Position numbers and translations under genes: made by a program. 64,000 bases of DNA from Candidatus Microsaccharimonas sp. (GTDB lineage: Bacteria > Patescibacteriota > Saccharimonadia > Saccharimonadales > Saccharimonadaceae), in assembly GCA_049276535.1 (NCBI GenBank), contig JBASWP010000001.1, positions 168,241 to 232,240 on the forward strand, in the 5' to 3' direction. The notes beneath the pieces were generated by a model. The model was not told the DNA's origin, made no database searches, and saw only the letters and a program-made list of their open reading frames with translations. Numbering within the stretch: position 1 is the stretch's first letter; every line of letters starts with the position of its first letter. Below are positions 16,501 to 45,282 of the stretch, in pieces.

Positions 16501-16648
16501 GCATCCCTTCGGGGTAACAAGTAGTGACAGTCCTTCGGGAGTGTGAGCATCCGCCACGGCGTCCGATCACTCGGATGTCCGTGGCGGTATGTGTCCAGGA
16601 ATAGAATAATCCTGCTGATGAGTCGTAAACGACGAAACACATCTTGTA

Positions 16649-17175: not shown

Positions 17176-17214
17176 CCCTTTTCTCATTTCAGTATATATC
17201 TATACATGACATCT

Positions 17215-20475: not shown

Positions 20476-20659
20476 TCTTAATTCTTAATTTGTGACTTTC
20501 GTCCTTGGTTATATTCCTATAGCCTGGACTCATCAGCATATGTCTACATATGGAGTCGTGCAGACCTGCGAGGAGGCGAAGTGAATCGCGCTCTCTCGCA
20601 GGTCTGTTAGTGTACGGGCGTTGCGGCTCGCACGGGTGGAATTACACGACTCTTGCCGG

Positions 20660-21436
20660 CTACGGAGCGAAGAAGCCGTTCATCGCCGTCTGGCTGAACG
20701 ACGCCGACTGGCTGGCCCGCACCGCGGACTGGCTGACGACGGCGAACGCCTTGCGGATCTCGGACGGCGAGTTGCCCGGCGTCAGGACCCACTCATCGAG
20801 CAGGCCCATCTTCGAGAACACGTCGCGGAAGTCCGTGTGGCCATCCTCGATGCCGACGCCGGCGATGATGTGCTGCTCGGTCGCCAGCAGTCCCTTCACG
20901 ATCACGGCGACGTCACGAGCCTTCTTGACGGAACCGTAGTCCGCGCCGTCGGTCGTGACGAAGGTGATGGCTCGCGCCGTCACCCCGCCCTGTTCGAACT
21001 CTGCGATCTTTGCAGCCACGGCCGTGAGGACGAGGATCATCTGGTCGTAGAGCGGGGTGCTGCCGCCGGGGTTGTAGTTCGTCCCGTCCAGGCGGATGGC
21101 CTGGTCGAGCAGAACGTACGGCTGCAGCACTCCTCGGTTGAGCGTCCAGACACCGCAGAGAACCGCGGCCTGCTGCTTGGACGCTTTCAGCGAGTCGACC
21201 ACGAGGTTGTGACCATCGCGGGCGTGCTGGGCGTTGTCGTACATCGAGGTGCTGTCGTCGAGCACCTCGGTGACGATGATGACCTCCGAGGCGTCGATGT
21301 CATCGACGACGACCGTGCCGAGGCCGGCGTTGATAGCCGGCCCCAGCGTGTCGACGACCGTAGTCATCGCCGCGGTCGCGTCGTCATCGACCCCTGCTCC
21401 GGAGATCAGGCTGGACAGAGAGGTTGTGCTTGTCAT
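20660..21436 (-). CDS. vWA-domain protein with MIDAS motif (TerY-like), island B gene 4
   Basis: 'LDDSTSM' (DxSxS MIDAS) and 'VTTDGADYG'. GC-rich codon usage. Last gene of the minus-strand operon. Confidence 0.65.
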   Translation of the reverse strand: MTSTTSLSSLISGAGVDDDATAAMTTVVDTLGPAINAGLGTVVVDDIDASEVIIVTEVLDDSTSMYDNAQHARDGHNLVVDSLKASKQQAAVLCGVWTLNRGVLQPYVLLDQAIRLDGTNYNPGGSTPLYDQMILVLTAVAAKIAEFEQGGVTARAITFVTTDGADYGSVKKARDVAVIVKGLLATEQHIIAGVGIEDGHTDFRDVFSKMGLLDEWVLTPGNSPSEIRKAFAVVSQSAVRASQSASFSQTAMNGFFAP

Positions 21437-21457
21437 CTTGTTCGTTTCCTTTCAGGA

Positions 21458-22510: not shown

Positions 22511-22531
22511 TGCCTTGCCTTTCCGTTTTTT

Positions 22532-24403
22532 CTAGTGGATTTTCAGAAGGACGATCTCGTTACCCAAGACCGCGTAGATCCCCTCTCGTCCTTGAACGAG
22601 CTGGGCGTGGGAGTTCACGAACGGCTCGGTGTCGGGGAAAACTTTCTCCACGAACACCGCACCGCCATTCACCCCAAGTCGAACGATGCCGTCGTCGGTG
22701 GCCACGCAGAGCAGCTTACCGATTGCCAGGTGACCCCGAATACCTCCGCCCAGCCATGAATCCTCACCATCCATGGCACTAGCTTCAGCGAGGAGCTTCC
22801 CTTGCTTGTCGACAACGTAACACTTGTGATACAGCGATCCTTGATCCTGCACCGTCGCGAAGAACCAGATCTGGTCGTTCCCGAAAACGGCAGTGGCGTC
22901 GACCAGCTGGCCGGGAATCGAGGGAATCTCGACCCGGTCATTGAACGACTGACCATTGGCGTTAAAGATGAACGAACGGACGATCTTGCCCGCTTGGAAG
23001 AACCCGAAACCGAGTGATTCCCCTACCCAGACCAGTGTCTGATCTGACAGGATGTCACCGATGCGTTCCGGTCCAAACTTGCCGTCCTTGACCAGCTCGT
23101 TGCCGCTCAGCCAGTAGCTGTGCTGCTGGTTCGCGTCGAACACTGGAAGGATCTGACGATAGAGCCCTGTCGTATAGCTCTGGTTCGCACCGTCGCCATC
23201 GATCTCAAAGACCCTGCCTTCTTTTCCAATCAGCGTCGAGTCGCCCTTGATCCTGAACCGAAGTTCGTGATCCAGTTCGCCCGTGAGGACCTTGCGGCCC
23301 CCCTCGCGGTAGTACGCGCCGTTCTCGTGGTACAGATATCGCAGCTCGTGGTCCTGATTCACGACGTACAGCAGGCGCCCGGTTGTACGGAACACTCGCT
23401 CGGACGTGACGGTACCGCGAACGGTGACGACCGTCTTCACATACCCCGACGTGGCCGCGCAGGTCGGACAGATGTTACGCGCATGGGTTTCCCCACACTG
23501 CGTGCATACCGTCCAGCGCAGATTGTCGAAATAGCGAAGCGGAAACTCACCACGCAGATCTTTCTCGTACACCTGGTGCAGGTAGTCCAGAAAGTCGTCC
23601 GGCAAGACACCGAGGGGGAGGGCCGGCTTCGGGTAGATGACACTCGGGTCAAATACCGTCACTCGTCCCAGCACCCTTTCGTCGTGCTGAAGGCGTCTGC
23701 CGGTTTTGGGCCGGTGAACACCTCCGTACGGACCAACCGCCAGTTGCGACTGCATCAGCATCGTAAGAAATGCGTACCAGTCGGACTCTTGGTTGTGTGG
23801 CCGCGCAAGCACAAGGTGATCGGGAGCACACCGAAGCGGGTCGACGAATCGACTCGTGAAGGTGTGGGTCTCGAACCCTGCGAATTGCATACTGTCGGCG
23901 TCGACCACCTTCACGCCACCGTTATTCACGATGACATTCAGGTCATTGACGTCGCCCAGCACCACAGACTGTGCGTGGATCTGCTTGAACACTCGATGGA
24001 GTTCTCGGAAGATCTTGACGACCTGATTACCGTCGATACCGCTTGCTTCGCGGTACTGACGGCTAGTCAGCTTCATCAAAACATCCCCTCCACTGATGAA
24101 AGGCATGGTGTACCCCACCACCTTGTCGTTCCCGGACTTGTCAAAAGCCAGGGCAAGGGGTGCGACGACTTCCGCAGGGAGACCCTTTGGAAAGACGCGC
24201 AGCTTCTTCTGTTGTTCGGCGATGCGAACGACTGCGCCTTGCTGTGCCGCCGAGTCACCCGTGTAGTCGGGATCCTTCGGTGTCTTGAACAGCTTCAGCA
24301 CGGTGTTGTTGTCGACCTTGAAGACGTCTGCTTCGCCACCTTTACCGATCAAGGCGCCCGGTTGCAAACGGACGACCTGACCATTCAGCATGACTGAAGG
24401 CAT
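22532..24403 (-). CDS. Atypical Ser/Thr protein kinase-like protein with CxxC...CxxC zinc ribbon and C-terminal beta-rich domain, island B gene 2
   Basis: Gly-rich loop 'GKGGEADVF', Lys 'VLKLF', catalytic-loop-like 'VLGDVNDLNVIV', 'VVDADS' in place of DFG. Then 'CTQCGETHARNICPTC' and about 300 further residues. It follows the PP2C gene with a 2-nt gap. Confidence 0.55.
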   Translation of the reverse strand: MPSVMLNGQVVRLQPGALIGKGGEADVFKVDNNTVLKLFKTPKDPDYTGDSAAQQGAVVRIAEQQKKLRVFPKGLPAEVVAPLALAFDKSGNDKVVGYTMPFISGGDVLMKLTSRQYREASGIDGNQVVKIFRELHRVFKQIHAQSVVLGDVNDLNVIVNNGGVKVVDADSMQFAGFETHTFTSRFVDPLRCAPDHLVLARPHNQESDWYAFLTMLMQSQLAVGPYGGVHRPKTGRRLQHDERVLGRVTVFDPSVIYPKPALPLGVLPDDFLDYLHQVYEKDLRGEFPLRYFDNLRWTVCTQCGETHARNICPTCAATSGYVKTVVTVRGTVTSERVFRTTGRLLYVVNQDHELRYLYHENGAYYREGGRKVLTGELDHELRFRIKGDSTLIGKEGRVFEIDGDGANQSYTTGLYRQILPVFDANQQHSYWLSGNELVKDGKFGPERIGDILSDQTLVWVGESLGFGFFQAGKIVRSFIFNANGQSFNDRVEIPSIPGQLVDATAVFGNDQIWFFATVQDQGSLYHKCYVVDKQGKLLAEASAMDGEDSWLGGGIRGHLAIGKLLCVATDDGIVRLGVNGGAVFVEKVFPDTEPFVNSHAQLVQGREGIYAVLGNEIVLLKIH

Positions 24404-24405
24404 GG

Positions 24406-25218
24406 TTACTCCGTTTCTGTGGGTTGGGGAACGCGGCGTCCGACGATCATCGTGGTGTCATCCCGCAGGTACCCGAATTCCGGGTCCTTTTGGGGGTAGT
24501 CACGACCGATCAGCTTCAGCTCGCGCTCGATGGCAATGTGGAGGGCGTAGTACTTGTCGTCTTGCCAGAACTGCTCGATCGGTCCGACGATGCCGGACAG
24601 GCCGGGCTTTTTCTTGCCCTCGCTTGCGACCAGGTAGTCTATCCCGTCCGTCGCCAACATGAACGAATTCACGTCGGTGACATCAAACGGGGCAAACACC
24701 GGGTGCAAACGCAACAGGTCGGAATCGACCGTGGCATCCTCGCCCATCAAGCAGTACCCGATATAGGGTGGCTCGTTGTTCGGGAACGGTCCAAGGTTCG
24801 TCACGACTCCGTTGATGACGATGGTGCCGTCGCCTAGCGCAAAGAACGTGATGGTGTGGCCGTCGGTGACAAAACCGAGAAGCGTAAACAGGAAATACTG
24901 CTTGATCACTTCACGATAGTTGCCGCCCATGGCACGCACCAGCACGTCCAACTGCGAGACGACTTGCTGTTGTACGCGGCTCCACTTGATCTGGTGTTTC
25001 GGACCACTGTATGCGGCGCGGATGCTCTCGGCGAGGATCTTGACGCCCAACTGGGCGCCCACCTCGCTGTGAGCATGACTTCCGCAGCCATCAGCCACGA
25101 CTCCGACGGTCAGGTCTCCAGCCGTAAGGATAGTCCAGCTATCCTGACTGTTTAACCCGGCCCAGCGATGATCGCGACCGATCCAGCTTCCGCCAGCGAA
25201 TTGAAATTCGGCTGACAT
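24406..25218 (-). CDS. PP2C-family Ser/Thr phosphatase, island B gene 1
   Basis: 'NSQDS', 'GVVADGCGSH', 'FALGDG', 'ATDGIDYL' and 'DDTTMIV' match PPM/PP2C metal-binding motifs. A GAGGTGA ribosome-binding site precedes the start, which follows a long AT-rich leader. Confidence 0.65.
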   Translation of the reverse strand: MSAEFQFAGGSWIGRDHRWAGLNSQDSWTILTAGDLTVGVVADGCGSHAHSEVGAQLGVKILAESIRAAYSGPKHQIKWSRVQQQVVSQLDVLVRAMGGNYREVIKQYFLFTLLGFVTDGHTITFFALGDGTIVINGVVTNLGPFPNNEPPYIGYCLMGEDATVDSDLLRLHPVFAPFDVTDVNSFMLATDGIDYLVASEGKKKPGLSGIVGPIEQFWQDDKYYALHIAIERELKLIGRDYPQKDPEFGYLRDDTTMIVGRRVPQPTETE

Positions 25219-30949: not shown

Positions 30950-30986
30950 GGAATTGAAAAGCCCCAGGGCTTATCAGATGCCTGGG
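30950..30986 (-). terminator. Intrinsic terminator for the flotillin-like gene
   Basis: Hairpin gccccagg/cctggggc followed on the minus strand by TTTTCAATT. A second hairpin ggggtacgt/acgtacccc at about 31033-31066 sits right after the stop. Confidence 0.5.
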
Positions 30987-31081
30987 GCGATTCGCGTACG
31001 TGACCATCGTCTCAATACAATTGTAGAGACGGTGCCGGGGTACGTCAGCGCGAGCCAACGTACCCCAGCCTCATCATGCGA

Positions 31082-32920
31082 CTACTTCTTGTCCCGCTTG
31101 CCCGGACGGACCGCGTCCCGGATGTCCCGGGCGTGGCCGAGGATCTCCGGTGCGGCCTCGGCGGCAGCCTGCAGGCCCGCGATGGCGTCATCCGCGAACG
31201 ATCCCTCGGAACCGGGCTCGACGACAGAGTCGACGGCCGGAACCACGGGTTCGGCGGGCTCCGCCAGAGCGGCAGCGGTTGCAGCGGCCGCGACGGCCGC
31301 AGTTCCCACTCTGGAGCTGGGGGACTTGGCCGAAGCCGCATCTCCCGACACCACCGGAGCCGGAACCTGCGACTGGGTCGCGGGCTCGGGCTCATCCGCA
31401 GCCGGCTTGGAAGCCGGCTGGTTGCGCAGACCGAGAGGAACGCCTCCACCTGCCTGCTCACCGCGGAGTCCCGCGACGAGCGAACCGAGCATGGCCCCCA
31501 GAGGGGCACCGCCGAGCAGCTGAGACTGCAGGTCACCCTGCTGCATCAGCTTGGGCAGGTCGCCGAGGAAGTCGGACAGCACGTTGCCGCCGCCTTCCCG
31601 AGAACCCGCACCCATGTCGACGATCGTGACCTTCTCGCCGATGTTGCCGACGACCTTGGCGGTCTCGGTGGCGATGGTGACACGCATGTTGCTCTCGATC
31701 TCGGCGATGCGGACCTGGAGGTTCGCACCGTCGTTGGCCGCGAGCGCTTCCGCCATCAGGCGTTCGCGCTCGGCCTCGGCCTTACCGAGTGCGAGGATCG
31801 CAGCGGCTTCGGCCTCACCCTTCGCCTGAGTGGCGTCGGCTTCGGCACGACCACGCGCACGGACCTGCTCGGCCTCGGCGTTGGTGGTGATACCGATGGC
31901 GTCAGCCTTACCCTTCGCCTCGATCGTCACCGCCTCGGCCGCAGCCGACGCTTGGGTCCTGGCGACCGTACCGGCCGCCTGTGCGTCGATCTCGCTCTTG
32001 CGAGCCGAGGACTCCGCCTCGATCTCGAGCGTCTTGCGAGCGGTCTCGGCCTGAGTAACCGCCACCTCCTGTTGGGCGGTGGCGGCGGCCTTCTCCTGCT
32101 GCGCACGAACGACAGTGACCTGGCCCTGTGCAGCTGCGGTCTCCTGGTCGAACTCCGCCTGGCGGAGCGCGACATCGCGATCCTTCTCGGCGACGACCAG
32201 CTTCTTGTCGAGCATGGCCGTCTCCGAGACCTGCTCGGATTCGGCCTTCGCCACGTTGATCGCCTTCTCGGCCGCAGCCGTGAGGACCGCGGCACTGCGC
32301 CGCTTCTCCTCGCGGTCTTCGGCCGCCGAGTTGCTGTAGTACTCGTTCCGGTCGCTGACCTCGGCGATGTTCAGCGAGACCAGCTGGAAGCCCAGGTCCA
32401 GCATCTTCGGCGCGACGTTCGTCGTGACCTGGCTGCTGAACTCGTCCTTCTTGGTGAGCACGTCATCCGGCGTCATCGTCGCGACGACCTGACGAATCTC
32501 TCCGTCAAGCGTCAGCTTGAGCGACTTGACGGTGTCGTCGAAGCCGCCACCGATGTAGCCGACGATGGCCTTCTCGAGCGCGCCGTCGGTCTTCGTGTCG
32601 GGACGGATCTGGGCGGTCCACTTGACGACGATCGGCACCTTGGTGCTGGTCTGCGTCTCGTAGTCGTCCGACTGGATCGTCATGTTGCCCAGCGGGAACC
32701 GCTCGCTCTTGCGAAGGAACGAGACGTAGGCGCCGCCGGACTTGATGATCCGAGGGCCCTTCTTCCCGCCGGTAATCACCAGCGCCTCGTCGGCATCGGT
32801 GATCCGATAGCCGATCTTGAAGACGATGAATCCGACGGCGACGACCACGAGGACGCCGATGACACCCACGATGATCGCGGGTCCTTCGAGCAGGCTCTGC
32901 AGCCACGCGAAGATGTCCAT
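31082..32920 (-). CDS. Flotillin-like SPFH/band-7 protein with long Ala/Glu-rich coiled coil, island C
   Basis: N-terminal TM then an SPFH-like region ('VITGGKKGPRIIKSGGAYVSF', 'VPIVVKWTAQIRP'). Followed by an EA-rich coiled coil ('AEAEQVRARGRAEADATQAKGEAEAAAILALGKAEAERERL') and a flexible Ala/Pro tail. GC-rich. Confidence 0.65.
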   Translation of the reverse strand: MDIFAWLQSLLEGPAIIVGVIGVLVVVAVGFIVFKIGYRITDADEALVITGGKKGPRIIKSGGAYVSFLRKSERFPLGNMTIQSDDYETQTSTKVPIVVKWTAQIRPDTKTDGALEKAIVGYIGGGFDDTVKSLKLTLDGEIRQVVATMTPDDVLTKKDEFSSQVTTNVAPKMLDLGFQLVSLNIAEVSDRNEYYSNSAAEDREEKRRSAAVLTAAAEKAINVAKAESEQVSETAMLDKKLVVAEKDRDVALRQAEFDQETAAAQGQVTVVRAQQEKAAATAQQEVAVTQAETARKTLEIEAESSARKSEIDAQAAGTVARTQASAAAEAVTIEAKGKADAIGITTNAEAEQVRARGRAEADATQAKGEAEAAAILALGKAEAERERLMAEALAANDGANLQVRIAEIESNMRVTIATETAKVVGNIGEKVTIVDMGAGSREGGGNVLSDFLGDLPKLMQQGDLQSQLLGGAPLGAMLGSLVAGLRGEQAGGGVPLGLRNQPASKPAADEPEPATQSQVPAPVVSGDAASAKSPSSRVGTAAVAAAATAAALAEPAEPVVPAVDSVVEPGSEGSFADDAIAGLQAAAEAAPEILGHARDIRDAVRPGKRDKK

Positions 32921-33177
32921 GTATTTCTCCTTGGGATAGGTGTTGCATGAATGGTGGGATGAACGTAACTAGTTACGTATGTAGTTTCATGATGAATTGT
33001 GATGATCGTTCGTCGCCCACCAGCGAATTTTGCAATTTTACATCTTTTTTCATAAAAAGTCAAGGGTTGAGAGGTGTTAATTTGATAATAACGCGATGTT
33101 AATTAACTTGCAAAAAATACATAAATATGATATATTACCTCTGTTGTTTTACTGGACACTACCGGAAGGCGTAAGAC

Positions 33178-34182
33178 ATGGACCTGTTCATCGGAATTGT
33201 CATCGGCCTCGCCCTCGCGGGCGGCGTCTTTGGCATTGTTGTTCTCATCAAGCGGCGCAACGCTGCCTGGGAGAACAGCTCCACCAGTTCGTCGCGAGAC
33301 GAGCGAGAAGATCGACGTGACACCTCCCGCGAGGATGCCGAGCGGTCGCTCGCCACGCGCGAGGCGGAAGCGAAGAATGCCGCGTATCGTCAGATGCGCG
33401 ACAAGTACGACGCTGCCACCACGCGCGAGGAGTACGTCGCTCTGCAGACCGAGCTCGAGGCCGGACGATCGAAGCTCGCCGAGGCGGACTATGACTCGCT
33501 GGTCAGCCAGATCGAGAGCGAGATCGAAGCGCTGGACGAGGAAGCTCGAGCCCGCGCCGAGATCGAGCCCAAGCTGGCGGCCTTCGCGGCACTGAAGAAC
33601 GTCACGGACAAGGAGGAGCTCTTCACTAAGCTTCACCCCATGTTCGCGACCGACGAAACGCCGGTGATCACCTACGACGAGCTGGAAGAGCACGCCGAAG
33701 AAGGCGACCTCGACTGGCTCGACACCGCCTACGACGAGGCGCTCATCGAGCACCTCAAGGCGTTGTTGATCGCCGCTCGCGAGGGCACGGTCGCCGACTA
33801 CAAGGCGGTCACCAAGCTGTGGGACGAGCTCGAGGACTACAGCAGCAACACGTACGACGACAGGGATGACCTGGTCAGCCAGAACCTCGCAACCGAGTGG
33901 AACGAGATGATCGTCCGCTTCAAGCGCGAGCCTGACTACGACGAGGACCTGTACGGGCTCGACGACCTCGACGAGGACGGTTACAAGGCGATCATCAAGA
34001 AGGCCCGTGAAGACCACGACCTTCTCAGCCTGCGGCTGCTGTTCATCATCGTGAACGAATGGCAGGATTCGGATTTCACGGACCTGCTGGTCGCCAGCTT
34101 CACCGAAGAGCTTCAGGCCCAGCTGGACGCCCAGTACCTCGCCCTCGGGTTCACGCCCAACGAGCAGGAACGAAGCGTTTAG
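33178..34182 (+). CDS. Membrane-anchored, highly acidic coiled-coil protein, function unknown (island C)
   Basis: TM helix 'MDLFIGIVIGLALAGGVFGIVVLI' followed by an acidic region. It diverges from the flotillin gene across an AT-rich promoter region at 32930-33175. Confidence 0.45.
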   Translation: MDLFIGIVIGLALAGGVFGIVVLIKRRNAAWENSSTSSSRDEREDRRDTSREDAERSLATREAEAKNAAYRQMRDKYDAATTREEYVALQTELEAGRSKLAEADYDSLVSQIESEIEALDEEARARAEIEPKLAAFAALKNVTDKEELFTKLHPMFATDETPVITYDELEEHAEEGDLDWLDTAYDEALIEHLKALLIAAREGTVADYKAVTKLWDELEDYSSNTYDDRDDLVSQNLATEWNEMIVRFKREPDYDEDLYGLDDLDEDGYKAIIKKAREDHDLLSLRLLFIIVNEWQDSDFTDLLVASFTEELQAQLDAQYLALGFTPNEQERSV

Positions 34183-34302
34183 CCACGCCGGCTCGAAAAC
34201 AGCAACAACTCGTCGCTAATACCGGCGATACGGAGGGCGGCTCGGGATTTCCCCGGGCTGCCCTCCAGCAACACCCACGCGGGTGTTATTTTATTTCAAA
34301 AA

Positions 34303-34331
34303 TTGACAATAGTATAGATAATTGTTATAAT
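34303..34331 (+). promoter_or_regulatory. Perfect-consensus sigma70 promoter TTGACA-17-TATAAT
   Basis: TTGACA at 34303-34308, a 17-bp spacer, TATAAT at 34326-34331. A GAGGA ribosome-binding site and a GTG start at 34368 follow. Confidence 0.6.
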
Positions 34332-34367
34332 ATACATACTGTTCACGAGACGAGATGAGGAATAATC

Positions 34368-34754
34368 GTGTTGATCCCCAAAGGAGACGGAACGTTCACG
34401 AGCGGACCGTTAGACATCATCCTGATTTACCACAACGTCGAAGCGGACACCTTCCATCCCGCCTTCTACCGCGAGCACGGCATGCCGGGCCCGCCGGAAC
34501 TGGCGAGTGAGCAGGACTTCGTCCGGCTCATGAGTGACAAGCACCACACCGATGGGCTCCCCACCCTCGAAGAGGCTCAGGAGTTCGTTCGAACGACCAT
34601 GCAACCCACGTTCGGGGTGCCTGACCGCAACATCGTCCTCGACCCGCCCTATCCATGGCACGGTCAGATCGGTGATGTGATGATCGTGCAGAACTGGCTG
34701 AAGGTCGGACCTGATGCCACGTTCCGCGAGGTCAACGTCAACGTCACTACATGA
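34368..34754 (+). CDS. Hypothetical protein (island C), GTG start
   Basis: 128-aa GC-rich ORF downstream of a consensus promoter and ribosome-binding site. No recognisable motif. Confidence 0.4.
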   Translation: MLIPKGDGTFTSGPLDIILIYHNVEADTFHPAFYREHGMPGPPELASEQDFVRLMSDKHHTDGLPTLEEAQEFVRTTMQPTFGVPDRNIVLDPPYPWHGQIGDVMIVQNWLKVGPDATFREVNVNVTT

Positions 34755-37246: not shown

Positions 37247-38914
37247 CTATAGTTGTCCAAGCCTATTTTCAAAAGTAGCATTCAGAGCTTGTAACATAAC
37301 AGGCATCTCAGTCTCGAACTGCTCTTTGGTGATTGCGTCACCAACGCGTCTTGCTACGCTTACTTTACGGCCGCTACTAAATGCCGCGACGTCACTAGCG
37401 CTAAATGTCCAGGTCTCCATATATGTTCTGCTGTCCGACGCATCACTACATTGATCATCATGTTTATTCGGATAATACTCCTCTAGTGAGCCTACCCCTA
37501 GTTCATGAAGCTGATCATCTTTTGAAAAACTAGGTAACCTTGCGATCAGCGCAGCAAACTGCTCTGGAGACACCTTATTAGAATCGACTACTACTTGGTA
37601 TCTTTTATCATAAATAGTTGCCGAAAGGGGTGTGAATATCTTTTCAAGAGCACTGATTAACTGCACAGCTTCGTGCATATCTCCTTTCGCCGGGAGAAGC
37701 TTTACGCTTGCCCATTCTGGATAGTGGCGAGCTATTACACGCGTAAGAAACTCAACCTCCGAAGCGCCTTCAACTATTAAGAAGTTCGTGGGCAAAAGTA
37801 GGTCAGAAGGGCTCCCACCAAGCAAGTCGTAAATAACATTCTGCTTAGCCAACTTATCTTGTGGCTCGACGGTTGTGATACCATCCTCATACTTTTGGAC
37901 CTTCAATGTAACTTGTTTGTCTCCTAAATTCTCTTCCGCAATGAGCACAGACGAATGTGTGGTAAGAAAAATTTGATCACCATTCTGCGCCAAGTCTTCA
38001 AGTGCACGCTTCAAATGTCGCTGTGCTCTCGGATGAAGGTGCAATTCGCCCTCGTCAATTAAGAAAATGAAATTCTTTATGTCGGCGTTATTGCGCCTAT
38101 AATCCGCGAAGGTCTGTATGATAGCAAGCATTAAGGCTCGCTGCATACCATCGCCTTTTTCGTATGCTTCCGTGACTACGCCATCATCAACTTTTGCAGA
38201 GAAGTTCTTGAATAGGTCATTCAGATCGGGATTCTTTACCTCAAACTCCACATTCGTAGTTTCAGGAAACTGTTTCTGGAGATAAAGCTGCACACTTTGT
38301 GCAAGCTTATTTAATTCATCATAAATTTTGGAGTCTTTCGAACCAAAGAGCTCATAAAATTCATCGATGAATTTTTTATACTTCTCGTCTCCACTCGCGA
38401 GTATTTCGCTTAGGACACCCGACAACATTGTGCCGATCTGTGTGGTTTTGCCGTACTTTAAAACTTCCCTTAGATTATTCTCCGTTTGTACGAATTCGAT
38501 TGAAGGAAGAAAGTCATTTAGAGCTCTATCAAACCCAACCCCTGGATCATCGTATGTACCGTCAGGTTTGAGAATTTTTCTATAGGTCTTTCCTGCCTCA
38601 TCGACAGTACGAACAAGAGTAACGGTATCTAGTTCACCTATCTTGCTATCGAGTGTTTTCTGATTCTTTTCATTTTTCATCTTTGACAGGGCAGTCTTGA
38701 TGTCATCAAATTCAACTTCGATGTAAGGTGCTCTTGAAGTGCCTTTACGTTTATGTTGATCGACCGAGCCACCAAAATAGAACCAATTGATTGCATTTAA
38801 GAAATTTGTTTTACCGTGGTTGTTTTGTCCAACAAGTACGTTCAAGCTTGAGACACTAATCTCTATATCTTCTATAGAACGGAAATCTCTTACCAACACT
38901 CTTGTTATATTCAT
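37247..38914 (-). CDS. OLD-family nuclease (N-terminal ABC-type ATPase + C-terminal Toprim)
   Basis: 'LNVLVGQNNHGKTNFLNAI' Walker A right after 'VRDFRSIEDIEI'. 'LIDEGELHLHP' (Walker B/D-loop), 'FLTTHSSVLI' (H-loop). C-terminal 'FLIVEGASEVEF' and 'VVVDSN' are Toprim-like acidic motifs. AT-rich gene. Confidence 0.65.
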   Translation of the reverse strand: MNITRVLVRDFRSIEDIEISVSSLNVLVGQNNHGKTNFLNAINWFYFGGSVDQHKRKGTSRAPYIEVEFDDIKTALSKMKNEKNQKTLDSKIGELDTVTLVRTVDEAGKTYRKILKPDGTYDDPGVGFDRALNDFLPSIEFVQTENNLREVLKYGKTTQIGTMLSGVLSEILASGDEKYKKFIDEFYELFGSKDSKIYDELNKLAQSVQLYLQKQFPETTNVEFEVKNPDLNDLFKNFSAKVDDGVVTEAYEKGDGMQRALMLAIIQTFADYRRNNADIKNFIFLIDEGELHLHPRAQRHLKRALEDLAQNGDQIFLTTHSSVLIAEENLGDKQVTLKVQKYEDGITTVEPQDKLAKQNVIYDLLGGSPSDLLLPTNFLIVEGASEVEFLTRVIARHYPEWASVKLLPAKGDMHEAVQLISALEKIFTPLSATIYDKRYQVVVDSNKVSPEQFAALIARLPSFSKDDQLHELGVGSLEEYYPNKHDDQCSDASDSRTYMETWTFSASDVAAFSSGRKVSVARRVGDAITKEQFETEMPVMLQALNATFENRLGQL

Positions 38915-39003
38915 AAGTACAGTATAACAAACCCAATAGCATGACTTTAAGGAGTTCTAGACCCACTTACCCTATAGAGGTCGAGGGCACATGGGATTCG
39001 AAC

Positions 39004-39032
39004 TAAAAAACGACCAAAATCGGTCGTTTTTT
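39004..39032. terminator. Bidirectional intrinsic terminator
   Basis: AAAAAA-acgacc-aaaat-cggtcgt-TTTTTTATT. The hairpin is flanked by A and T runs. Confidence 0.5.
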
Positions 39033-39270
39033 ATTACTTTGATTTGCACCAACACTTTAGACCTATTCGGGTCACGCTTGGTGTAAATCGTGGCTGGGGA
39101 TGAGGGATATCGCAGTAAACTGCTCCTCCGTTCATTCGCTCAAAAATGTAAACACTTTTTCGCTTCATTCACTTCACCGAACCCTCCGTCGTTTTGCTTC
39201 GCAAAACCGGGGGTTCAAATCATACGTCCTAAATCAAGAAAATTGACCCGCAAAAGCAGGTCAATTTTCT

Positions 39271-39345
39271 TGGCTGGGGATGAGGGATTCGAACCCCCGA
39301 ATGTCGGCACCAAAAGCCGATGCCTTACCACTTGGCGAATCCCCA
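39271..39345 (-). tRNA. tRNA-Gln (anticodon UUG)
   Basis: Reverse complement reads 'TGGGGATTCGCCAAGTGGTAAGGCATCGGCTTTTGGTGCCGACATTCGGGGGTTCGAATCCCTCATCCCCAGCCA'. It has U1-A72, anticodon loop tTTTGgt, a canonical T-loop and an encoded CCA, and is close to E. coli tRNA-Gln. Confidence 0.8.
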
Positions 39346-39455
39346 GTAAGTGCACCTAAGGATTGTACACTAACCGAGGTGATCTCTCAAGTGTTAGGTG
39401 CTGACTAGATATAAAAATAAGCCCCGGTCGGGGCTTATTTAAGAATGTATCTAGA

Positions 39456-39974
39456 CTACGCTTTTTTCGCTTTGTGTTTAACGGTATGTACAAATTGTCC
39501 GTGAATTTCGAACAAGAAGTACCCGCTAATAGCGATACCGATAGCACCGAATAGAATACCGGTGATAAAGCCAAAGACGCTAAAGCTAAGTACTGCACCC
39601 AGTACCACTGACACTACGTTTAGTAGCCAGCTAGCGAATAGGATCACCCAACCCTTTTTCTGACCTGCTTTGAGGGGTTTTACTGCCATCGCCATCAACA
39701 ATACCTGTAGAACGAGGAAGACGACGCCCACAATTGCACCAACCAAGCTACTCACCGTCGCAGTCGGTGCGTAGATTGCGTAGGCGCTCATGAGGGCAAG
39801 AAGCGTAAAGATTCCGCCAATTGCTACCAGTCCACCGATCGCTGACAAGATTGTTCCGATCAGGACAATCCACCATACGTTCTGACCCAACCATTTCTGC
39901 CCAGCCACAGGAAGGTGCGGGACACTCTTCACCCAACCATGAATGGTCGACTCAAGTTTATTTAAGATATCCAT
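39456..39974 (-). CDS. Polytopic membrane protein, function unknown
   Basis: 172-aa hydrophobic ORF with several TM helices. Confidence 0.4.
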   Translation of the reverse strand: MDILNKLESTIHGWVKSVPHLPVAGQKWLGQNVWWIVLIGTILSAIGGLVAIGGIFTLLALMSAYAIYAPTATVSSLVGAIVGVVFLVLQVLLMAMAVKPLKAGQKKGWVILFASWLLNVVSVVLGAVLSFSVFGFITGILFGAIGIAISGYFLFEIHGQFVHTVKHKAKKA

Positions 39975-40015
39975 GTCATAACTCCTTAATTACTTAGTTT
40001 AATCATACGACCGAA

Positions 40016-40615
40016 CTAGCGTTTCGACAACTGTTTTTTTGCTGAAGTCTTAACAGATCCAGGCCACATTCCCCAACTACTCCAAGCAGCAATGATCGCC
40101 AAGCCAATACTGACGAATACCGCCCACCAGCCAGGCATCACCGCTACGGCCGTACCCAGGAAACCAATATTGTCAGTGATTCCGTCCTGCAGTGCCAGAT
40201 TCGTCGTGATAAACAGCCATATGCCCGCCACTAACCATCCGCAGCCCATACTGAAATAGCGAAAGGCTGGACTGAGGGGCATGCGCAGCAAGAATGGCAA
40301 TGCAAACACCTCTACAGATACCAGCAGCGCCGCTAAAAAGACCGAGAATTGCTCGCCGCCAGGCAATCCAAAGCCGATGATCAACGCGGGGAATTCATCG
40401 TAGGTAAACAGTTGAGCCACGACGAATATGACAATTACGATGGCGTAGAAAAGAGCGATTCGTTTCGCGTCCTTTGTTTTTGGTGTTGGTGCTTTCGTAA
40501 CAGTAGGGAAGATACTCATGCTTGCAGTATAATACCCCACTCTCCTTCTTAGCAAATTGTTGTTATTTTTATCAATATGCTTGCGCTTTACTGGTTCGTC
40601 CTTTACAGTAAACAC
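40016..40615 (-). CDS. Polytopic membrane protein, function unknown
   Basis: 199-aa ORF with several TM helices and a basic N-terminus. Confidence 0.4.
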   Translation of the reverse strand: MFTVKDEPVKRKHIDKNNNNLLRRRVGYYTASMSIFPTVTKAPTPKTKDAKRIALFYAIVIVIFVVAQLFTYDEFPALIIGFGLPGGEQFSVFLAALLVSVEVFALPFLLRMPLSPAFRYFSMGCGWLVAGIWLFITTNLALQDGITDNIGFLGTAVAVMPGWWAVFVSIGLAIIAAWSSWGMWPGSVKTSAKKQLSKR

Positions 40616-40737
40616 AAGCGAAAGTTACAAAAATAAACATAACTCCAAAAAAACATATGTTGTGACTGACTCGCTCTACGATATCCACCACAACGCAGTA
40701 CGTCCCCTCTAGGGGGCGTTTCTGTTTCTTGATATAT

Positions 40738-41391
40738 TTATTCAGCTTTTAGAGATTGTTCGTCGCGCCACTTTGCGATTGCCGCGTGATTTCCACTCAG
40801 TAGAACGTCGGGAACTTTCAAACCGTTAAATTCGGCTGGTTTCGTGTATTGAGGGAACTCAAGTGTCTCACCATCTGAAAAACTCTCGATCTCGGCACTG
40901 GATTCACCCCCAAGGACATTTGGCAACAAACGAACGATCGAATCAATAATAGTCATTGCCGGCAGCTCCCCACCCGTCAACACATAGTCGCCCACGCTAA
41001 CCTGTTCGTCGACTAGGCTGACTATACGCTCGTCATAGCCCTCGTAGCGCCCGCAGACAAAGATATAGCCTGTTTCTGCATCAGCCCACTCACTAGCCAG
41101 TGATTGCTTCCAGCGCTGCCCACGAGGGGTCATCAGGACGACTTTAGCCGTAGGGTCAGCTTTTTTAGCGGCTTTGACCGCCGCAAACAGCGGTTCAGGC
41201 TTCAACAGCATACCGTCGCCACCCCCATACGGGGTATCATCGACTTGCTGACGTGGCCCCACGCCATAGTCACGCAGGTTGATCAACGCAAATTCGGCAG
41301 CATTCTGTTGCTGCGCCTTCCACATCATGGAACTATTCAGAACGCCGTCGAACATTTCTGGAAACAGCGTGATTACCTGTAGCTTTTTCAT
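40738..41391 (-). CDS. trmD: tRNA (guanine37-N1)-methyltransferase
   Basis: 'LQVITLFPEMF' at the N-terminus, 'GRYEGYDER' and a SPOUT-fold pattern. Lies downstream of rpsP and the KH-protein gene as in the conserved operon. Confidence 0.85.
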   Translation of the reverse strand: MKKLQVITLFPEMFDGVLNSSMMWKAQQQNAAEFALINLRDYGVGPRQQVDDTPYGGGDGMLLKPEPLFAAVKAAKKADPTAKVVLMTPRGQRWKQSLASEWADAETGYIFVCGRYEGYDERIVSLVDEQVSVGDYVLTGGELPAMTIIDSIVRLLPNVLGGESSAEIESFSDGETLEFPQYTKPAEFNGLKVPDVLLSGNHAAIAKWRDEQSLKAE

Positions 41392-41503
41392 TCTCCATAA
41401 GTGTACGGTACATTGACGGTATTATCAATATGTGATAATGTAAGGATTGACCTAAACACAAATGGAGTTTAGTCAATTCGCCTAGCTTTTTGGAGTAACC
41501 GCA

Positions 41504-41752
41504 ATGAAGACCACCCCGCTCTTGCAGTCACCCGTCACCGACGTGGCGGCCGCAACAGAGGAGGCTTCGGCCGCCTCCAACCGTGAAGGGCTGCAGCAGG
41601 ACCTGATCGCACTCATGGTGTCGCCCGAGTCCGCTCGCTCTACTCCCTCGTCGGCAGTCGACCCCATCAGCGCCCTGCGCATGTCGACTCCGGTCGACTT
41701 CGACTCCGCCTTCAAGCGGTACCACGGCAAGCCGATGGCCACACACGCCTGA
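41504..41752 (+). CDS. Small GC-rich hypothetical ORF (island D), antisense to the ribosomal operon
   Basis: 82-aa ORF with a TTGACG promoter-like element about 60 nt upstream and a strong terminator at 41896-41922. It could equally be a non-coding insert. Confidence 0.3.
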   Translation: MKTTPLLQSPVTDVAAATEEASAASNREGLQQDLIALMVSPESARSTPSSAVDPISALRMSTPVDFDSAFKRYHGKPMATHA

Positions 41753-41895
41753 GGTTCCCCTCACCCACCATACGTCGTCCGTCGTGGCTCACCCCACGAC
41801 AACACATCGTGCGGCCTTGGGGGTAGAACCTCAGGCCAATCGACCTTTATATGAACGCGTTTCATATCGGGGCAGATTGGCCTAAAATAACAAAT

Positions 41896-41922
41896 AACCG
41901 CCCTAATACTAGGCGGTTTTTT
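41896..41922 (+). terminator. Intrinsic terminator after island D
   Basis: 'aaccgccctaatactaggcgg' hairpin followed by TTTTTT. Confidence 0.6.
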
Positions 41923-42009
41923 GTACACATAAGCTCTCAACAAATGTGGTGATTTGTCGCTCGCATGAGCCATTTCTCGCAGTCCAAGAGTTTCTGAACT
42001 TAAGCGTTA

Positions 42010-42441
42010 TTATATATCAAGGTCGTCGAGTTCTGCAAGCTCTGCACGGGTCTTTTTTGAGTAGGCTGAACCGTTGTCCACAGACTCATCTGTCGAGGTT
42101 TCCACAGGTGCATCGGTCGCATCATCAGAAGTTGTATCAGAAACAGGCGTTTCATCACGATCATCAGATGAGATCGTATGAGTTGGCCCATCGCCATCAT
42201 TGTTAACAATCTTCAAGTTATAGCGAGCGTCGTTCTTTGTTCCTAAGGCACGTAACAGCGTACGCAAACTTTGGGCAGTCACGCCACGCTTACCAATAAC
42301 GCGACCGAGATCTTCTGGATTGACGGTCAAACTAAGTAACACACCTTTTTCATCAATAATACGATCGACAATAACGTCGTCCGGGTGTCCGACAACGGAT
42401 TTTACGATATATTCTATGAATTGCTGGTCAATGGTCGACAT
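42010..42441 (-). CDS. KH-domain RNA-binding protein (YlqC/UPF0109-like)
   Basis: 'LGRVIGKRGVTAQSLRTL' GxxG KH motif with an acidic C-terminal extension. Lies between rpsP and trmD. Confidence 0.7.
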   Translation of the reverse strand: MSTIDQQFIEYIVKSVVGHPDDVIVDRIIDEKGVLLSLTVNPEDLGRVIGKRGVTAQSLRTLLRALGTKNDARYNLKIVNNDGDGPTHTISSDDRDETPVSDTTSDDATDAPVETSTDESVDNGSAYSKKTRAELAELDDLDI

Positions 42442-42522
42442 AATTCCCCCTTATAGTGACGTTGGTCGTGCATCTGATATCGTAATTTAATTGTAGCACG
42501 AATCCGCTTGTGCTCTCCTACA

Positions 42523-42551
42523 TTGACTTTTATAAGCATTAGTGATATAAT
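42523..42551 (+). promoter_or_regulatory. Consensus sigma70 promoter TTGACT-17-TATAAT driving island E
   Basis: TTGACT at 42523-42528, a 17-bp spacer, TATAAT at 42546-42551. A GGAG ribosome-binding site precedes ATG 42604. Confidence 0.55.
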
Positions 42552-42603
42552 ATATAGCGTTGTTATAGAGATACTATAGCCACAGCACCTGAAGGAGCAC
42601 CCA

Positions 42604-42801
42604 TTGGACATCGTCGAAGGCGAGCTGAACCTCCACGCCCACTACAACGGCTGGACTCAGCACCAGCTGGAAGCTGCACAGGACTACCTGCGCGCCCTCC
42701 ACTCCGACCCCAACGCGACACCGCCGCCCACCAAGGTCTTGTCCATAAACAAGGCCAACGTCGTCAAGACGCTGATGGAGCGGTACGCCGGCGTCAGCTA
42801 G
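42604..42801 (+). CDS. Small GC-rich hypothetical ORF (island E)
   Basis: 65-aa ORF with a consensus promoter, a ribosome-binding site and two downstream hairpins. No motif recognised. Confidence 0.3.
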   Translation: MDIVEGELNLHAHYNGWTQHQLEAAQDYLRALHSDPNATPPPTKVLSINKANVVKTLMERYAGVS

Positions 42802-42829
42802 GCTTCTACGTGAGCCCCTCGGTGTTGAT

Positions 42830-42914
42830 CCCCGTCCGTCGCCTCCCCTGGCTACGGACGGGGATCGCCCCAACTTTTTGAAATCAAAAACCCGCCGAGT
42901 TGGCGGGCTTTTTT
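42830..42914 (+). terminator. Tandem intrinsic terminators after island E
   Basis: Hairpin ccccgtccgt...acggacgggg followed by CAACTTTTTG. Then 'cccgccgagttggcgggc' followed by TTTTTTATT. Confidence 0.6.
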
Positions 42915-42927
42915 ATTGGGCTGGTAA

Positions 42928-43347
42928 TTATTCAGCTTTTTCTTCAGTTGCTTCTTCGACAGGAGTTTCTTCGACGGCAACTTCTTCCGCAGGTGCTTCA
43001 GGAGTTTCGATAACTTCTTCAACTTCCTCTGCGGGACGGTTCTTGCGAAGTTTGTCGGAGTGGCGAATTGTTTTTACCTTGTCAGTAGTGAAATCTTTGA
43101 CCCACTTTGGCATAACAACACCGGCATCTTTCAAAAGCTTTACCACTCGTGGTGTTGGTTGTGCACCGTTATTAAGGAACTTTTGTGCCTGTTCAACTTG
43201 AATATTAACTTCTTTGGTGTGTGGGTTGTAGCTACCTACATAGGCAACAACACGACCACTTGATGGGTGGCGTTGAGATTCTTGGACCGCGAGGCGATAC
43301 GTTGCGTATCCCTTACGTCCGAGGCGTTGCAATCGGATTGCGAGCAT
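42928..43347 (-). CDS. rpsP: 30S ribosomal protein S16 (with C-terminal extension)
   Basis: 'MLAIRLQRLGRKGYATYRLAVQESQRHPSSGRVVAYVGSYNP'. Confidence 0.85.
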   Translation of the reverse strand: MLAIRLQRLGRKGYATYRLAVQESQRHPSSGRVVAYVGSYNPHTKEVNIQVEQAQKFLNNGAQPTPRVVKLLKDAGVVMPKWVKDFTTDKVKTIRHSDKLRKNRPAEEVEEVIETPEAPAEEVAVEETPVEEATEEKAE

Positions 43348-43443
43348 AAAACAGAAACTTCCTTTAACTCTATAAAATTATTTTTAACTCTCGGATGATT
43401 TTACACTGTTTCAATCTGTAAGTCAACCTAGTACTGGTGGTGC

Positions 43444-44154
43444 TTATTTACCGTCGCCGTAATACTCTAACGCGGCTTTGGCGGCCACCTGTTGGGCATG
43501 TTGCTTACTAGGGCCAGTACCTTGACTGACCAAACGATCGCCTGAATAGACGCCCAAGGTAAACATTTTGTCGTGGTCAGGCCCGACTTCTTCCAACACA
43601 ACGTAGCGTGGCGTCACTCCGTCAGTTCGTTGCATAACTTCTTGCAGGTGTGACTTTGGATCACGCCAGCTGCCGCTGACCAAGATAGCGTCAAGCTTTG
43701 AGGTAATGTGCTTTTTGATGAATACTTCCGCGTCGGCGTAGCCTCGCTCCAAGTAAATCGCCCCGATCAGCGCTTCAAAGGCATTTGCCAGAATCTGCTG
43801 ACGGGCTCGATCACCGCCTTGTTTTTCACCACGGCTCATACGGATCAATGATTCATACCCCAGTTTTGTCCCAGCCTCGCCAATACTCTCGGTACGCACC
43901 AGCGATGCGCGCCAACTGGTCAAAATACCTTCTGGTTCGCTGTAGTTATTAAACAAGAAATCGGTCACGACTAGCTCTAAAACAGCATCGCCCAAAAACT
44001 CGAGGCGTTCGTTGTGTTCGTGAACGCTTTTGCGGTGTTCGTTCACGTAGCTACGGTGGGTAAAGGCAGTGATCAGTAGATCGATTTTCTCAAACTCAAA
44101 GCCCAGTATTTCTCGAGCAAATTCTTGGTATGGTGCCACCTGCATCCCCGTCAT
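43444..44154 (-). CDS. rnc: Ribonuclease III
   Basis: 'ERLEFLGDAVLELVV' RNase III signature plus a C-terminal dsRBD. Confidence 0.9.
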   Translation of the reverse strand: MTGMQVAPYQEFAREILGFEFEKIDLLITAFTHRSYVNEHRKSVHEHNERLEFLGDAVLELVVTDFLFNNYSEPEGILTSWRASLVRTESIGEAGTKLGYESLIRMSRGEKQGGDRARQQILANAFEALIGAIYLERGYADAEVFIKKHITSKLDAILVSGSWRDPKSHLQEVMQRTDGVTPRYVVLEEVGPDHDKMFTLGVYSGDRLVSQGTGPSKQHAQQVAAKAALEYYGDGK

Positions 44155-44649
44155 TTATAAATTCTCCTGCCTTATACGTTTCATACCTAGTAGCATCAGT
44201 TTGCCGATATCTTCGTATTCAATGGCGTCGAGGGCATCGTGGAACGAGAACCACTTGATACCATTCATCCATTCTTCTTTTTTGATGGCATTCGTATCAC
44301 CCATGGCTCGGACCAAATATATCTGGGTGGTCATCAGAACTAGTTTGTCGATACGACGATAACGAAAATGAATCTTACCTAACCAGCCGAGGATTTCGAC
44401 GTTAGCTAGCCCTGCTTCTTCACCAATTTCACGCTTAGCGGTTTGCTGCGCGGTTTCACCTTCTTCGATGTGACCTTTTGGAATCGTCCAGCGGTCTTTG
44501 GCGTCTTGGATCAGCAGGATTTCGATAGCACCCTCTTTGCCATGGCGAAATACAATACCTCCCGCGGTTGGTTCGCGGACGATTTCTTGAATAGCTGGTT
44601 TTTTACGAGAAAAATATTTCTTGAATTTATCAAACTGTGGTGCGGCCAT
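44155..44649 (-). CDS. Nudix hydrolase
   Basis: '[22 protein letters not shown]' Nudix box. Confidence 0.65.
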
Positions 44650-45088
44650 CAGTGGCTCCCTCTATAAGTGTGCGGTAGGCTGTTCCCAGCACTCCATTCA
44701 CAAACTTACTCGAGTTATCAGAACCAAACGCTTTTGCGAGTTCGACGGCTTCATTGATTGCTACCTTCGGAGGGACGACATCAGCTTGATGCAGTAGCTC
44801 ATAGATACCAATACGAAGGATATTGCGGTCAATTCGGGCAATCTGTTCAAGTGGCCAATCGGGTGCGATCGGCGTGATCTTTGCGTCAATGTCGCTCTGT
44901 TCTTTTAGAACGCCAGCGACGAGGTTTTCGACGAACTTCGTGTCTTGGATAGCCTCTTCGTACCTCGAAATGTTGCGCTCAAGGACTTCCTTGATCTCAA
45001 CCGAAGTGTCTCCAGACTCGGTACGAAATTCGTACTCGTAGAGTGTCTGGAGGGCGACGATGCGACCGAGATGACGATTAGATGCCAT
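44630..45088 (-). CDS. nusB: Transcription antitermination factor NusB
   Basis: 'LQTLYEYEF' ... 'RIGIYELL' NusB-fold pattern. 152 aa. Confidence 0.75.
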
Positions 45089-45132
45089 AATGCGTTTGTT
45101 TCTCTTGTTAATTAAATGTACAGATTAAAAGC

Positions 45133-45282
45133 TTATACGGCTTTTTTCTTGCCCGTTTCCTTACGGGTAGTGGTGACTTTGACCGGTGAACTTCCATTCA
45201 CACGGCGAGCAAGCACCAGTCGCAGGTGGCTGCGACGTAGGCCGGTTTTACGCGGGCTACTTTGCTTTTTTGGTTGTCCCAT
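45133..45282 (-). CDS. rpmF: 50S ribosomal protein L32 (short form)
   Basis: Minus-strand ORF not in the track: 'MGQPKKQSSPRKTGLRRSHLRLVLARRVNGSSPVKVTTTRKETGKKKAV'. It has the RRSH motif and is preceded by a GGAG ribosome-binding site. Confidence 0.55.
   Translation of the reverse strand: MGQPKKQSSPRKTGLRRSHLRLVLARRVNGSSPVKVTTTRKETGKKKAV

Follow-up and report, generated by a model that had tools for sequence, protein, structure and literature searches.

The 64,000-nucleotide stretch of DNA analysed here, which we call the window, comes from a metagenome-assembled genome of Candidatus Microsaccharimonas sp. (Saccharibacteria), in which the minus-strand genes trmD, khpA (which encodes a KH-domain protein) and rpsP are neighbours. 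Each of the two spacers flanking khpA holds a GC-rich plus-strand segment with a small open reading frame (ORF), ORF82 between khpA and trmD and ORF65 between rpsP and khpA. We think it likely that these two cassettes are independent single-gene transcription units, each for a small, soluble, lineage-restricted protein, a layout that we read from conserved signals. Both ORFs are annotated as hypothetical proteins on the 700,895-bp contig: ORF82, a small acidic protein, as NCBI WAO28_01130 (41504..41752, +), and ORF65, which starts with TTG, as WAO28_01140 (42604..42801, +). A preliminary description of this DNA had pointed to GC-rich plus-strand segments in both gaps, and both are present, each with a promoter, a GGAG motif, an ORF (82 and 65 amino acids, respectively) and 3′ hairpins. 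Relative to the compact spacers of most Saccharimonadales they are additional DNA, aberrant in composition and equipped with a promoter and a terminator of their own. The GC content of the inserts is 0.61–0.67 at 41475–41850 and 0.62–0.64 at 42600–42900, against 0.38–0.47 in the flanks; that of the genome is about 47%.

The preliminary description took rpsP, the KH gene and trmD to be a conserved operon and expected the inserts to interfere with read-through to trmD. The gene order holds, but the signals of a single operon do not, since promoters and terminators are predicted inside it. To place these signals we draw on 80 species-level Saccharimonadales loci, retrieved with the KH protein, in which both spacers were measured; the compact state spans 54–140 nt for the rpsP–KH spacer and 132–180 nt for the KH–trmD spacer, and spacers of at least 350 nt were counted as expanded. 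A hairpin with a T-run follows the KH stop codon in 33 of 35 compact spacers; 65 of 69 loci have a TAnnnT box that ends 6–9 nt before the trmD ATG, and 82 of 84 have an extended −10 element TGnTAnnnT, mostly TGCTACAAT, 36–60 nt ahead of the KH start codon. Species without an insert thus already have a terminator after the KH gene, and the expected interference loses its ground. In the window, the predicted trmD promoter (TTGATA-17-TACACT, 9/12; 41400..41428, −) has a −10 box (41400..41405) that ends 8 nt before the ATG, and the KH promoter carries its extended −10 TGCTACAAT at 42490..42498 (−), 48 nt upstream of the KH start. Taken together, these signals suggest that rpsP, khpA and trmD are separate transcription units here; with each gene under its own signals, there would be little read-through to interrupt, so the cassettes would not break an operon. 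As a separate observation, the placement of the trmD −10 box, found likewise at the equivalent position in L012–L091, would imply that trmD mRNA has no leader, or almost none, throughout the order.

L007, a close relative whose KH–trmD spacer is empty, shows the native arrangement, in which a bidirectional terminator separates the KH 3′ untranslated region (UTR) from the trmD promoter. Natively, then, each spacer would contain first the terminator of the housekeeping gene before it and then the promoter of the one after it, and each small gene would be wedged between these two signals in reversed orientation. The ORF82 cassette is placed exactly between the KH terminator and the trmD promoter, and the ORF65 cassette lies between the rpsP terminator and the KH promoter. 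Transcription of the small gene would start at a sigma-70-type promoter, back-to-back with that of khpA in the case of ORF65 and overlapping that of trmD in the case of ORF82; the transcript would then cross one or two long GC-rich hairpins and end at a bidirectional terminator common with rpsP or khpA. The 3′ hairpins would stabilise the mRNA and insulate rpsP and khpA against antisense read-through. Consensus scans of the region found 7 sites resembling promoters, where 3.1 ± 1.8 were expected, and 7 resembling terminators, where 3.3 ± 2.0 were. Across the survey, an antisense TTGAC occurs in the trmD promoter region of 31 of 36 expanded KH–trmD spacers versus 4 of 33 compact ones (Fisher p 3e-10, uncorrected for phylogeny), so that the promoter used by opposite-strand genes appears to be interlaced with the trmD promoter.

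The predicted transcripts, approximately 41446–41925 for ORF82 and 42558–42915 for ORF65, share only promoter DNA and a terminator hairpin with their neighbours and contain no coding sequence of trmD, khpA or rpsP. A cis-antisense RNA overlaps its target mRNA, and here the overlap does not go beyond the shared terminators; the suggestion of antisense or regulatory RNAs, also made earlier, finds no neighbouring coding sequence that such RNAs would cover. Divergent bacterial promoters, and convergent genes with a common bidirectional terminator, are known. The present layout resembles them in that the small-gene promoters abut or overlap those of khpA and trmD, with A-tracts upstream and T-tracts downstream of the terminator hairpins. 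We propose that this is how the inserts are tolerated, and there is nothing unusual in it.

The predicted ORF82 promoter (41413..41439, +), read from the sequence as TTGACG-15-TGTGATAAT with an extended −10 at 41431..41439, overlaps the trmD promoter in the opposite direction and is kept in the related loci L008, L002 and L007; its equivalent in L093, TTGAAT-17-TGCTATGAT, stands at the same relative position. The preliminary description had named TTGACG and TTGACC boxes; TTGACG (41413) makes the better promoter, and TTGACC (41448) more probably marks where the 5′ UTR begins. The GGAG ribosome-binding site (41492..41495, +), 8 nt ahead of the ATG, is conserved in L008 and L002. On the 3′ side, two long hairpins stand ahead of the terminator, and the region folds at −80 kcal/mol (z = −8.7 versus shuffles). 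Hairpin H1 (41747..41836, +) begins at the stop codon, and its outer stem, perfect over 11 bp, encloses an inner hairpin; in L093 its GGTTC/GAACC pairing has changed to GGATC/GATCC, a compensatory change. Hairpin H2 (41833..41883, +) is the 49-nt inverted repeat noticed before: it exists, with 23-nt arms that are 78% complementary, but its right arm reads ...CAGATTGGCC and not CGATTGGCC. The stems are preserved with differing sequences in L008, L002 and L093, and an apical ATGAA-N4-TTCAT is retained within arms that otherwise differ. The terminator announced downstream of ORF82 was recovered in a hairpin scan as a terminator-like hairpin at 41896..41918; it is a bidirectional intrinsic terminator, common to KH (−) and ORF82 (+), and is also found in L007.

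Ahead of ORF65, the TTGACT-17-TATAAT promoter and the GGAG motif are as first described. The promoter (42523..42551, +; consensus scan) has a TG extension, scores 11/12 and stands back-to-back with the KH promoter; it is conserved in L002, L007, L012 (TTGACT-17-TATAAT) and L013 (TTGACT-17-TATAGT). The 5′ UTR contains a hairpin (42564..42578, +) with compensatory changes in L002 (TACAG..CTGTA), L012 and L013, followed by the GGAG ribosome-binding site (42594..42597, +), 6 nt ahead of the TTG. What had been called tandem terminators is actually one 17-bp GC-rich hairpin (42827..42866, +) plus one canonical terminator. The hairpin has changed from GTCCGT/ACGGAC to GCTCG/CGAGC in L012, again with compensation, and the 3′ region folds at −57.5 kcal/mol (z = −6.4 versus shuffles). 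In the terminator (42891..42914, hairpin 42891..42907) the stem is preceded by A5 and followed by T6, so that it would be bidirectional, serving rpsP (−) as well as ORF65 (+).

For both ORFs, only the annotated frame stays open in all relatives, and it also scores best when proteins are aligned across species. When the DNA of the ORF82 region is aligned without constraint, every indel is a multiple of 3, and the GGAG and the start codon are conserved, the TTG of ORF65 in the window corresponding to an ATG at the same codon in L012. These are the marks of a protein-coding gene: a frame open in relatives, in-frame indels, and a conserved start and ribosome-binding site. ORF82 also has conserved blocks, an N-terminal PLLQSPVT, an EGxxQDLxxL and a C-terminal RMSTPVDFxxxFxRYxGxPMAxHA, the last conserved in L093 with synonymous changes. 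The ratio of nonsynonymous to synonymous substitution rates (dN/dS) is 0.48–0.55 for ORF82 and 0.37–0.92 for ORF65, below 1 in most pairs, and 0.02–0.07 for trmD, KH and rpsP. We conclude that ORF82 and ORF65 are genuine but weakly constrained protein genes. It could be argued instead that the ORFs are chance frames in GC-rich DNA and that the real products are structured non-coding RNAs acting on neighbouring transcripts, or transcriptional interference. The strongly structured 3′ regions with their compensatory changes would suit this, as would the weak codon-position bias and the several alternative frames that are also open in the window; since the promoters touch or overlap those of trmD and khpA, they could plausibly compete for RNA polymerase. 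Nevertheless, the in-frame indels, the conserved starts and peptide motifs, the confident fold of ORF65 (below) and transcripts that overlap no flanking coding sequence all tell against it, and Rfam 15 gave no family at the gathering threshold over 40500–43600 (best, mraW, 28.9 bits versus 50). We regard this explanation as improbable.

The cassettes are neither a construct nor an assembly artefact, since independent metagenomes contain both ORFs in the same places. Homologues of ORF82 (76 amino acids, 49–55% identity) lie between trmD and khpA in assemblies of ENA PRJEB19935, in two Joint Genome Institute (JGI) metagenomes and in other runs (L002–L006, L008–L011). Those of ORF65 (77–86% identity) include one upstream of khpA in GCA_049304275.1 (L007), whose contig stops before rpsP, and an uncalled one in L002–L004, found by tblastn; the family occupies the rpsP–KH spacer of L002, L012, L013, L027 and L060. 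All copies with retrievable context are in the same place and on the same strand as in the window. Logan contig L001 (SRR28002555_178968, from run SRR28002555) is identical to 41531..42601 of the window, across both khpA junctions. It stops 27 nt into ORF82 at one end and 3 nt ahead of the ORF65 start codon at the other, where the GC-rich bodies have their edges; these ends could reflect strain heterogeneity in the small ORFs or a drop of coverage in GC-rich DNA. The preliminary description had thought of construct-like insertions, and the near-perfect promoter, the strong terminators, the foreign-looking composition and the ends of L001 can be cited for an engineered construct or a chimeric assembly. 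However, the junctions covered by L001 agree with the window, and naturally diverged versions of the same cassettes, with the same architecture and compensatory hairpin changes, occur in at least six unrelated samples (from PRJEB19935, the two JGI metagenomes, the Logan runs and GCA_049304275.1); we give that explanation hardly any credence.

The families are small, 4 proteins for ORF82 and 7 for ORF65 among billions. As had been proposed, the peptides and their sequences were searched in databases, and homologues were found only in these Saccharibacteria loci: there was none elsewhere in 5.8 billion clustered proteins, and a profile hidden Markov model (HMM) of ORF82 likewise found none elsewhere among 1.84 billion representatives. 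That search yielded one further true member, P0013, which carries the C-terminal motif and lies on the opposite strand beside trmD in L093, a locus whose trmD is 75% identical in nucleotides to that of the window and 80.6% to that of L012. Three repeat-protein matches to the same HMM were judged spurious by inspection. Both spacers gave no blastn match in 50,697 phage records, the ORF82 profile had no relative in viral contigs and gave nothing in metagenomes beyond a locus already known, and there are no paralogues of either ORF within the window. The literature offered no description of these genes, of the spacers that hold them or of GC-rich gene classes in Saccharibacteria. Compared with related genomes, then, the cassettes are extra DNA relative to most species, as first thought, although close relatives show the same intergenic content; in L007, where ORF65 is present, the trmD–khpA spacer is 183 nt long and empty.

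Both products are hydrophilic and mildly acidic (grand average of hydropathy, GRAVY, −0.2 to −0.5; isoelectric point, pI, 5.5–6.0), with no membrane segment. The ORF65 model is a three-helix bundle with a predicted local distance difference test (pLDDT) score of 88.9 and a predicted template modelling (pTM) score of 0.75. Searches of Pfam, NCBIfam, PHROGs and PADLOC with both ORFs and distant family members gave nothing except a PADLOC match with E 0.027. The products include the peptide strings ...MSTPVDFDSAFK and ...ANVVK. Similar 14-nt strings stand near the 3′ ends of the two genes, AGCGGTACCACGGC at 41715..41728 (KRYHG) and AGCGGTACGCCGGC at 42779..42792 (ERYAG); having no counterpart in the distant ORF65 relatives L012 and L013, the similarity is probably due to chance.

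In toxin–antitoxin systems the toxin is paired with an antitoxin gene or with an overlapping antisense RNA, the toxins of type I being short and hydrophobic. The preliminary description had thought of toxin/antitoxin-like peptides. Genes that are small, evolve fast, have strong promoters and occupy variable hot spots are common among toxins, antitoxins and defence-related peptides; the likeness ends there. ORF82 and ORF65 are single genes with neither a partner gene nor an overlapping antisense RNA, they encode hydrophilic products of the kind just described, without a membrane helix and without a family match, and the spacer genes of other species are mutually unrelated. A role of this type seems to us very improbable.

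The two spacers that flank khpA are order-wide hot spots for diverse opposite-strand genes, mostly without known domains. Most genomes are compact, yet 26 of 81 rpsP–KH spacers and 40 of 75 KH–trmD spacers are expanded, and in 52 of 60 expanded cases the longest ORF with a Shine–Dalgarno-like motif is on the opposite strand. These spacer ORFs frequently have a GC content at third codon positions (GC3) of 0.7–0.9 and, by BLASTP, fall into several small unrelated families and many singletons. Among ten that were sampled, Pfam found no domain in eight, a sigma-70 region 4 in one and a TM2 domain in one; sense-strand ORFs within the inserts, which might have been a decayed rimM or another gene, gave nothing in Pfam. 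Within the Microsaccharimonas-like lineage, ORF65 is a long-standing, fast-diverging occupant of its spacer: it is 46% identical to its counterpart in L012, where the KH protein is 81% identical. ORF82 is patchier, and in L007 it has probably been lost by deletion between 12-nt direct repeats. The finding is real but largely ordinary: two small genes, already annotated as hypothetical, that occupy permissive spacers separating transcription units. Less ordinary are the reuse of the two khpA-side spacers across the order and the GC3-rich codon usage over long divergence.

This codon usage bears on where the cassettes came from. GC3 is 0.83–0.89 in ORF82 and ORF65 and 0.36–0.54 in core genes, and the two ORFs are the smallest members of a second gene class, with GC3 of 0.71–0.89, that makes up about a fifth of the window. 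The class includes 14270–15814, 16711–17133, a kinase/PP2C pair at 22532–25218, 33178–34182 and 34368–34754, and probably also the blocks at 20.5–22.5 kb and 31–33 kb. In their promoters and 5′ UTRs, these genes are rich in AT and look native. In L093 the ORF82 family has a GC content of 0.65 and a GC3 of 0.81, against a GC3 of 0.43 in trmD of the same locus; within the ORF65 family the lowest GC3 is 0.45 (L060) and the highest 0.89 (window).

Such a composition is what an atypical, horizontally acquired island would show, and the cassettes could be mobile or horizontally transferred DNA, recently imported by site-specific or illegitimate recombination from a donor of high GC content such as the actinobacterium on which the epibiont lives. 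Other facts can be read in the same way. The ORF82 cassette is bounded by 12-nt direct repeats, GATTGACCTAAA on the left (41445..41456, +) and GATTGGCCTAAA on the right (41875..41886, +), and the empty site of L007 has GATTAGTCTAAA at the corresponding position. The ORF82 family is present in L093, whose trmD is nearer to that of L012 than to that of the window, while L012 has a different gene in the spacer. The number of synonymous substitutions per synonymous site (dS) is 0.07–0.26 for ORF65 and 0.46–1.3 for the flanks, which is compatible either with recent exchange or with constrained synonymous sites. Nonetheless, we consider a recent import unlikely. The searches listed above met no relative outside these loci, the genes stand at the same site in diverged relatives, and the ORF65 family sits in the same spacer across lineages with saturated dS. 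The AT-rich, native-style promoters and 5′ UTRs do not look imported. The GC-richness kept in L093 at 75% trmD identity would not be predicted by simple decay of imported DNA, for which drift to the resident composition would be expected.

A target-site duplication was considered for the 12-nt repeat, and that reading is weakened on three counts: L093 is without the right copy; the left copy coincides with the conserved beginning of the ORF82 5′ UTR, and the right one with an arm of H2, which it overlaps; and 9 of 100 shuffles give at least 2 matches. The repeats and the empty site fit a deletion between repeats in L007, and as evidence of insertion they are weak. There is also a doubtful proposal that the khpA-flanking spacers are dedicated, order-wide sites of capture or exchange for accessory genes on the opposite strand, operating through natural transformation and homologous recombination with the highly conserved rpsP, khpA and trmD as homology arms, and with GC3 kept high by GC-biased conversion or by selection. 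If this were true, the GC3-rich fifth of the window would be an actively maintained accessory gene pool of epibiotic Saccharibacteria, and not decaying foreign DNA.

Returning to the two cassettes as independent single-gene transcription units for small soluble proteins, several points weigh against this interpretation and should be set out together. The promoters and terminators on which it relies are consensus matches backed by conservation only. The rpsP stop codon is followed by a hairpin and T-run in just 30 of 55 compact spacers, so that rpsP and khpA may be co-transcribed in some species. Substitutions at the three codon positions number 7/5/12 and 24/20/30 in the small ORFs, compared with 8/2/58 in trmD; so weak a bias implies that, away from the conserved motifs, constraint at the protein level is modest. 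For ORF82 the structural model is poor (pLDDT 64, pTM 0.23), with one long helix and a better-defined C-terminal segment, from which we infer a mostly disordered protein with a conserved, docking-type C-terminal motif. Both products most likely bind other proteins, as accessory factors rather than in translation, although this function is one that we wholly infer. Finally, the interpretation does not account for the sustained GC3 of 0.7–0.9 against a core of about 0.45, for which selection, biased gene conversion or repeated import could each be responsible.

Among known systems, the closest likeness is to taxonomically restricted (orphan) small genes, which are also short, fast-evolving, confined to a narrow lineage and found in variable spots between core genes; here, by contrast, two spacers are reused throughout the order, almost always on the opposite strand, and GC3 is far above that of the genome. 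The origins of taxonomically restricted genes are discussed in PMC11293555. Like integron cassettes, the present ones combine a small ORF with an imperfect inverted repeat of about 50 nt, direct repeats at the ends and presence/absence polymorphism. They differ in having their own promoter, in arms (GGCCAATC/GATTGGCC) that are unlike the RYYYAAC/GTTRRRY cores, in the single cassette per site and in L093 being without the repeat. The attC cores of an integron are thus missing, and no integrase was present among the ORFs scanned near the locus, a scan narrower than a whole-window integrase screen.

For the gene order, the reference is the rpsP-rimM-trmD-rplS operon of Escherichia coli and the rpsP-ylqC(khpA)-rimM-trmD arrangement of Firmicutes. 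The window has in common with these the order of rpsP, the KH protein gene and trmD; it differs in lacking rimM, in having no rplS downstream, in the separate promoter signal conserved for each gene and in the terminator after khpA. In coordinates, trmD, the tRNA (guanine-N1)-methyltransferase gene, is at 40738..41391 (−; PF01746, E 2.4e-52), khpA, of the KhpA/KhpB type, at 42010..42441 (−; PF13083, E 2.3e-21) and rpsP, for ribosomal protein S16, at 42928..43347 (−; PF00886, E 5.6e-13), and rnc comes after rpsP among the minus-strand genes. For annotation, the practical outcome is that the small genes are genuine and that rpsP, khpA and trmD look like separate transcription units across the Saccharimonadales. 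Saccharibacteria genomes are tiny and highly syntenic, so the location of their variable genes matters: if these genes mediate host interaction or defence, the khpA-side sites would be convenient places to look for them and possibly neutral landing pads for genetic tools.

The most interesting object within the flagged coordinates may be one that lies outside the inserts and is apparently undescribed, a three-stem RNA motif in the khpA 3′ UTR, between the stop codon and the terminator (41920..42009, −). It is about 85 nt long and conserved: of 56 Saccharimonadales species, at least 54 have it immediately after the KH stop codon. The window has one copy, with a fold z of −4.2. Anchor-based folding, sequence by sequence, shows invariant blocks AACUGCGAGA, UGCGAGC and UUGAGAG, hairpins P1 and P3 that are kept across different stem sequences (CGACAAAU/AUUUGUUG, CAAACC/GGUUUG, CAACUU/AAGAGUUG), and a P2 stem, AGCUC(U)/(A)GAGCU, that encloses P3. 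Positions that mismatch as A·C in the plus strand pair as G·U in the minus strand, which makes the RNA sense to khpA. Rfam has no match to it at E ≤ 5. KhpA is an RNA-binding protein (10.1101/2023.10.30.564711), and an autoregulatory binding site is therefore one idea for the motif.

Elsewhere in the window, the comparison of 38800–45200 with L002 shows intergenic promoter and 5′ regions that are 95–100% identical (for example, 40593–40700, 43329–43418, 44586–44735 and 45036–45125), against about 80% in coding sequence, with dS of 0.5–1.3. Regulatory DNA thus appears to be under stronger constraint than synonymous sites in this pair. The segment 38800–39250, beside a tRNA gene (39274..39345), does not align with L002, with gaps of up to 60 columns, and may be another variable spot. 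The large blocks with GC3 of 0.7–0.85 (14270–17133, 20550–25218 and 30954–34754; core GC3 about 0.45) are mostly without Pfam domains. They include a pair made up of a protein-kinase-like gene, under the Pfam cut-off, and a PP2C phosphatase gene, and the block at 14270 lies behind an AT-rich, native-style promoter, TTGAAT-17-TGCTATAAT. Finally, a type III hammerhead ribozyme was found at 16588..16643 (+), between Pfam-less ORFs in the GC-rich block 14251–17201; it scores 50.2 bits against an Rfam gathering threshold of 48.5 (E 4e-8), and its core CUGAUGAG, CGAAAC and GUC cleavage site are intact.

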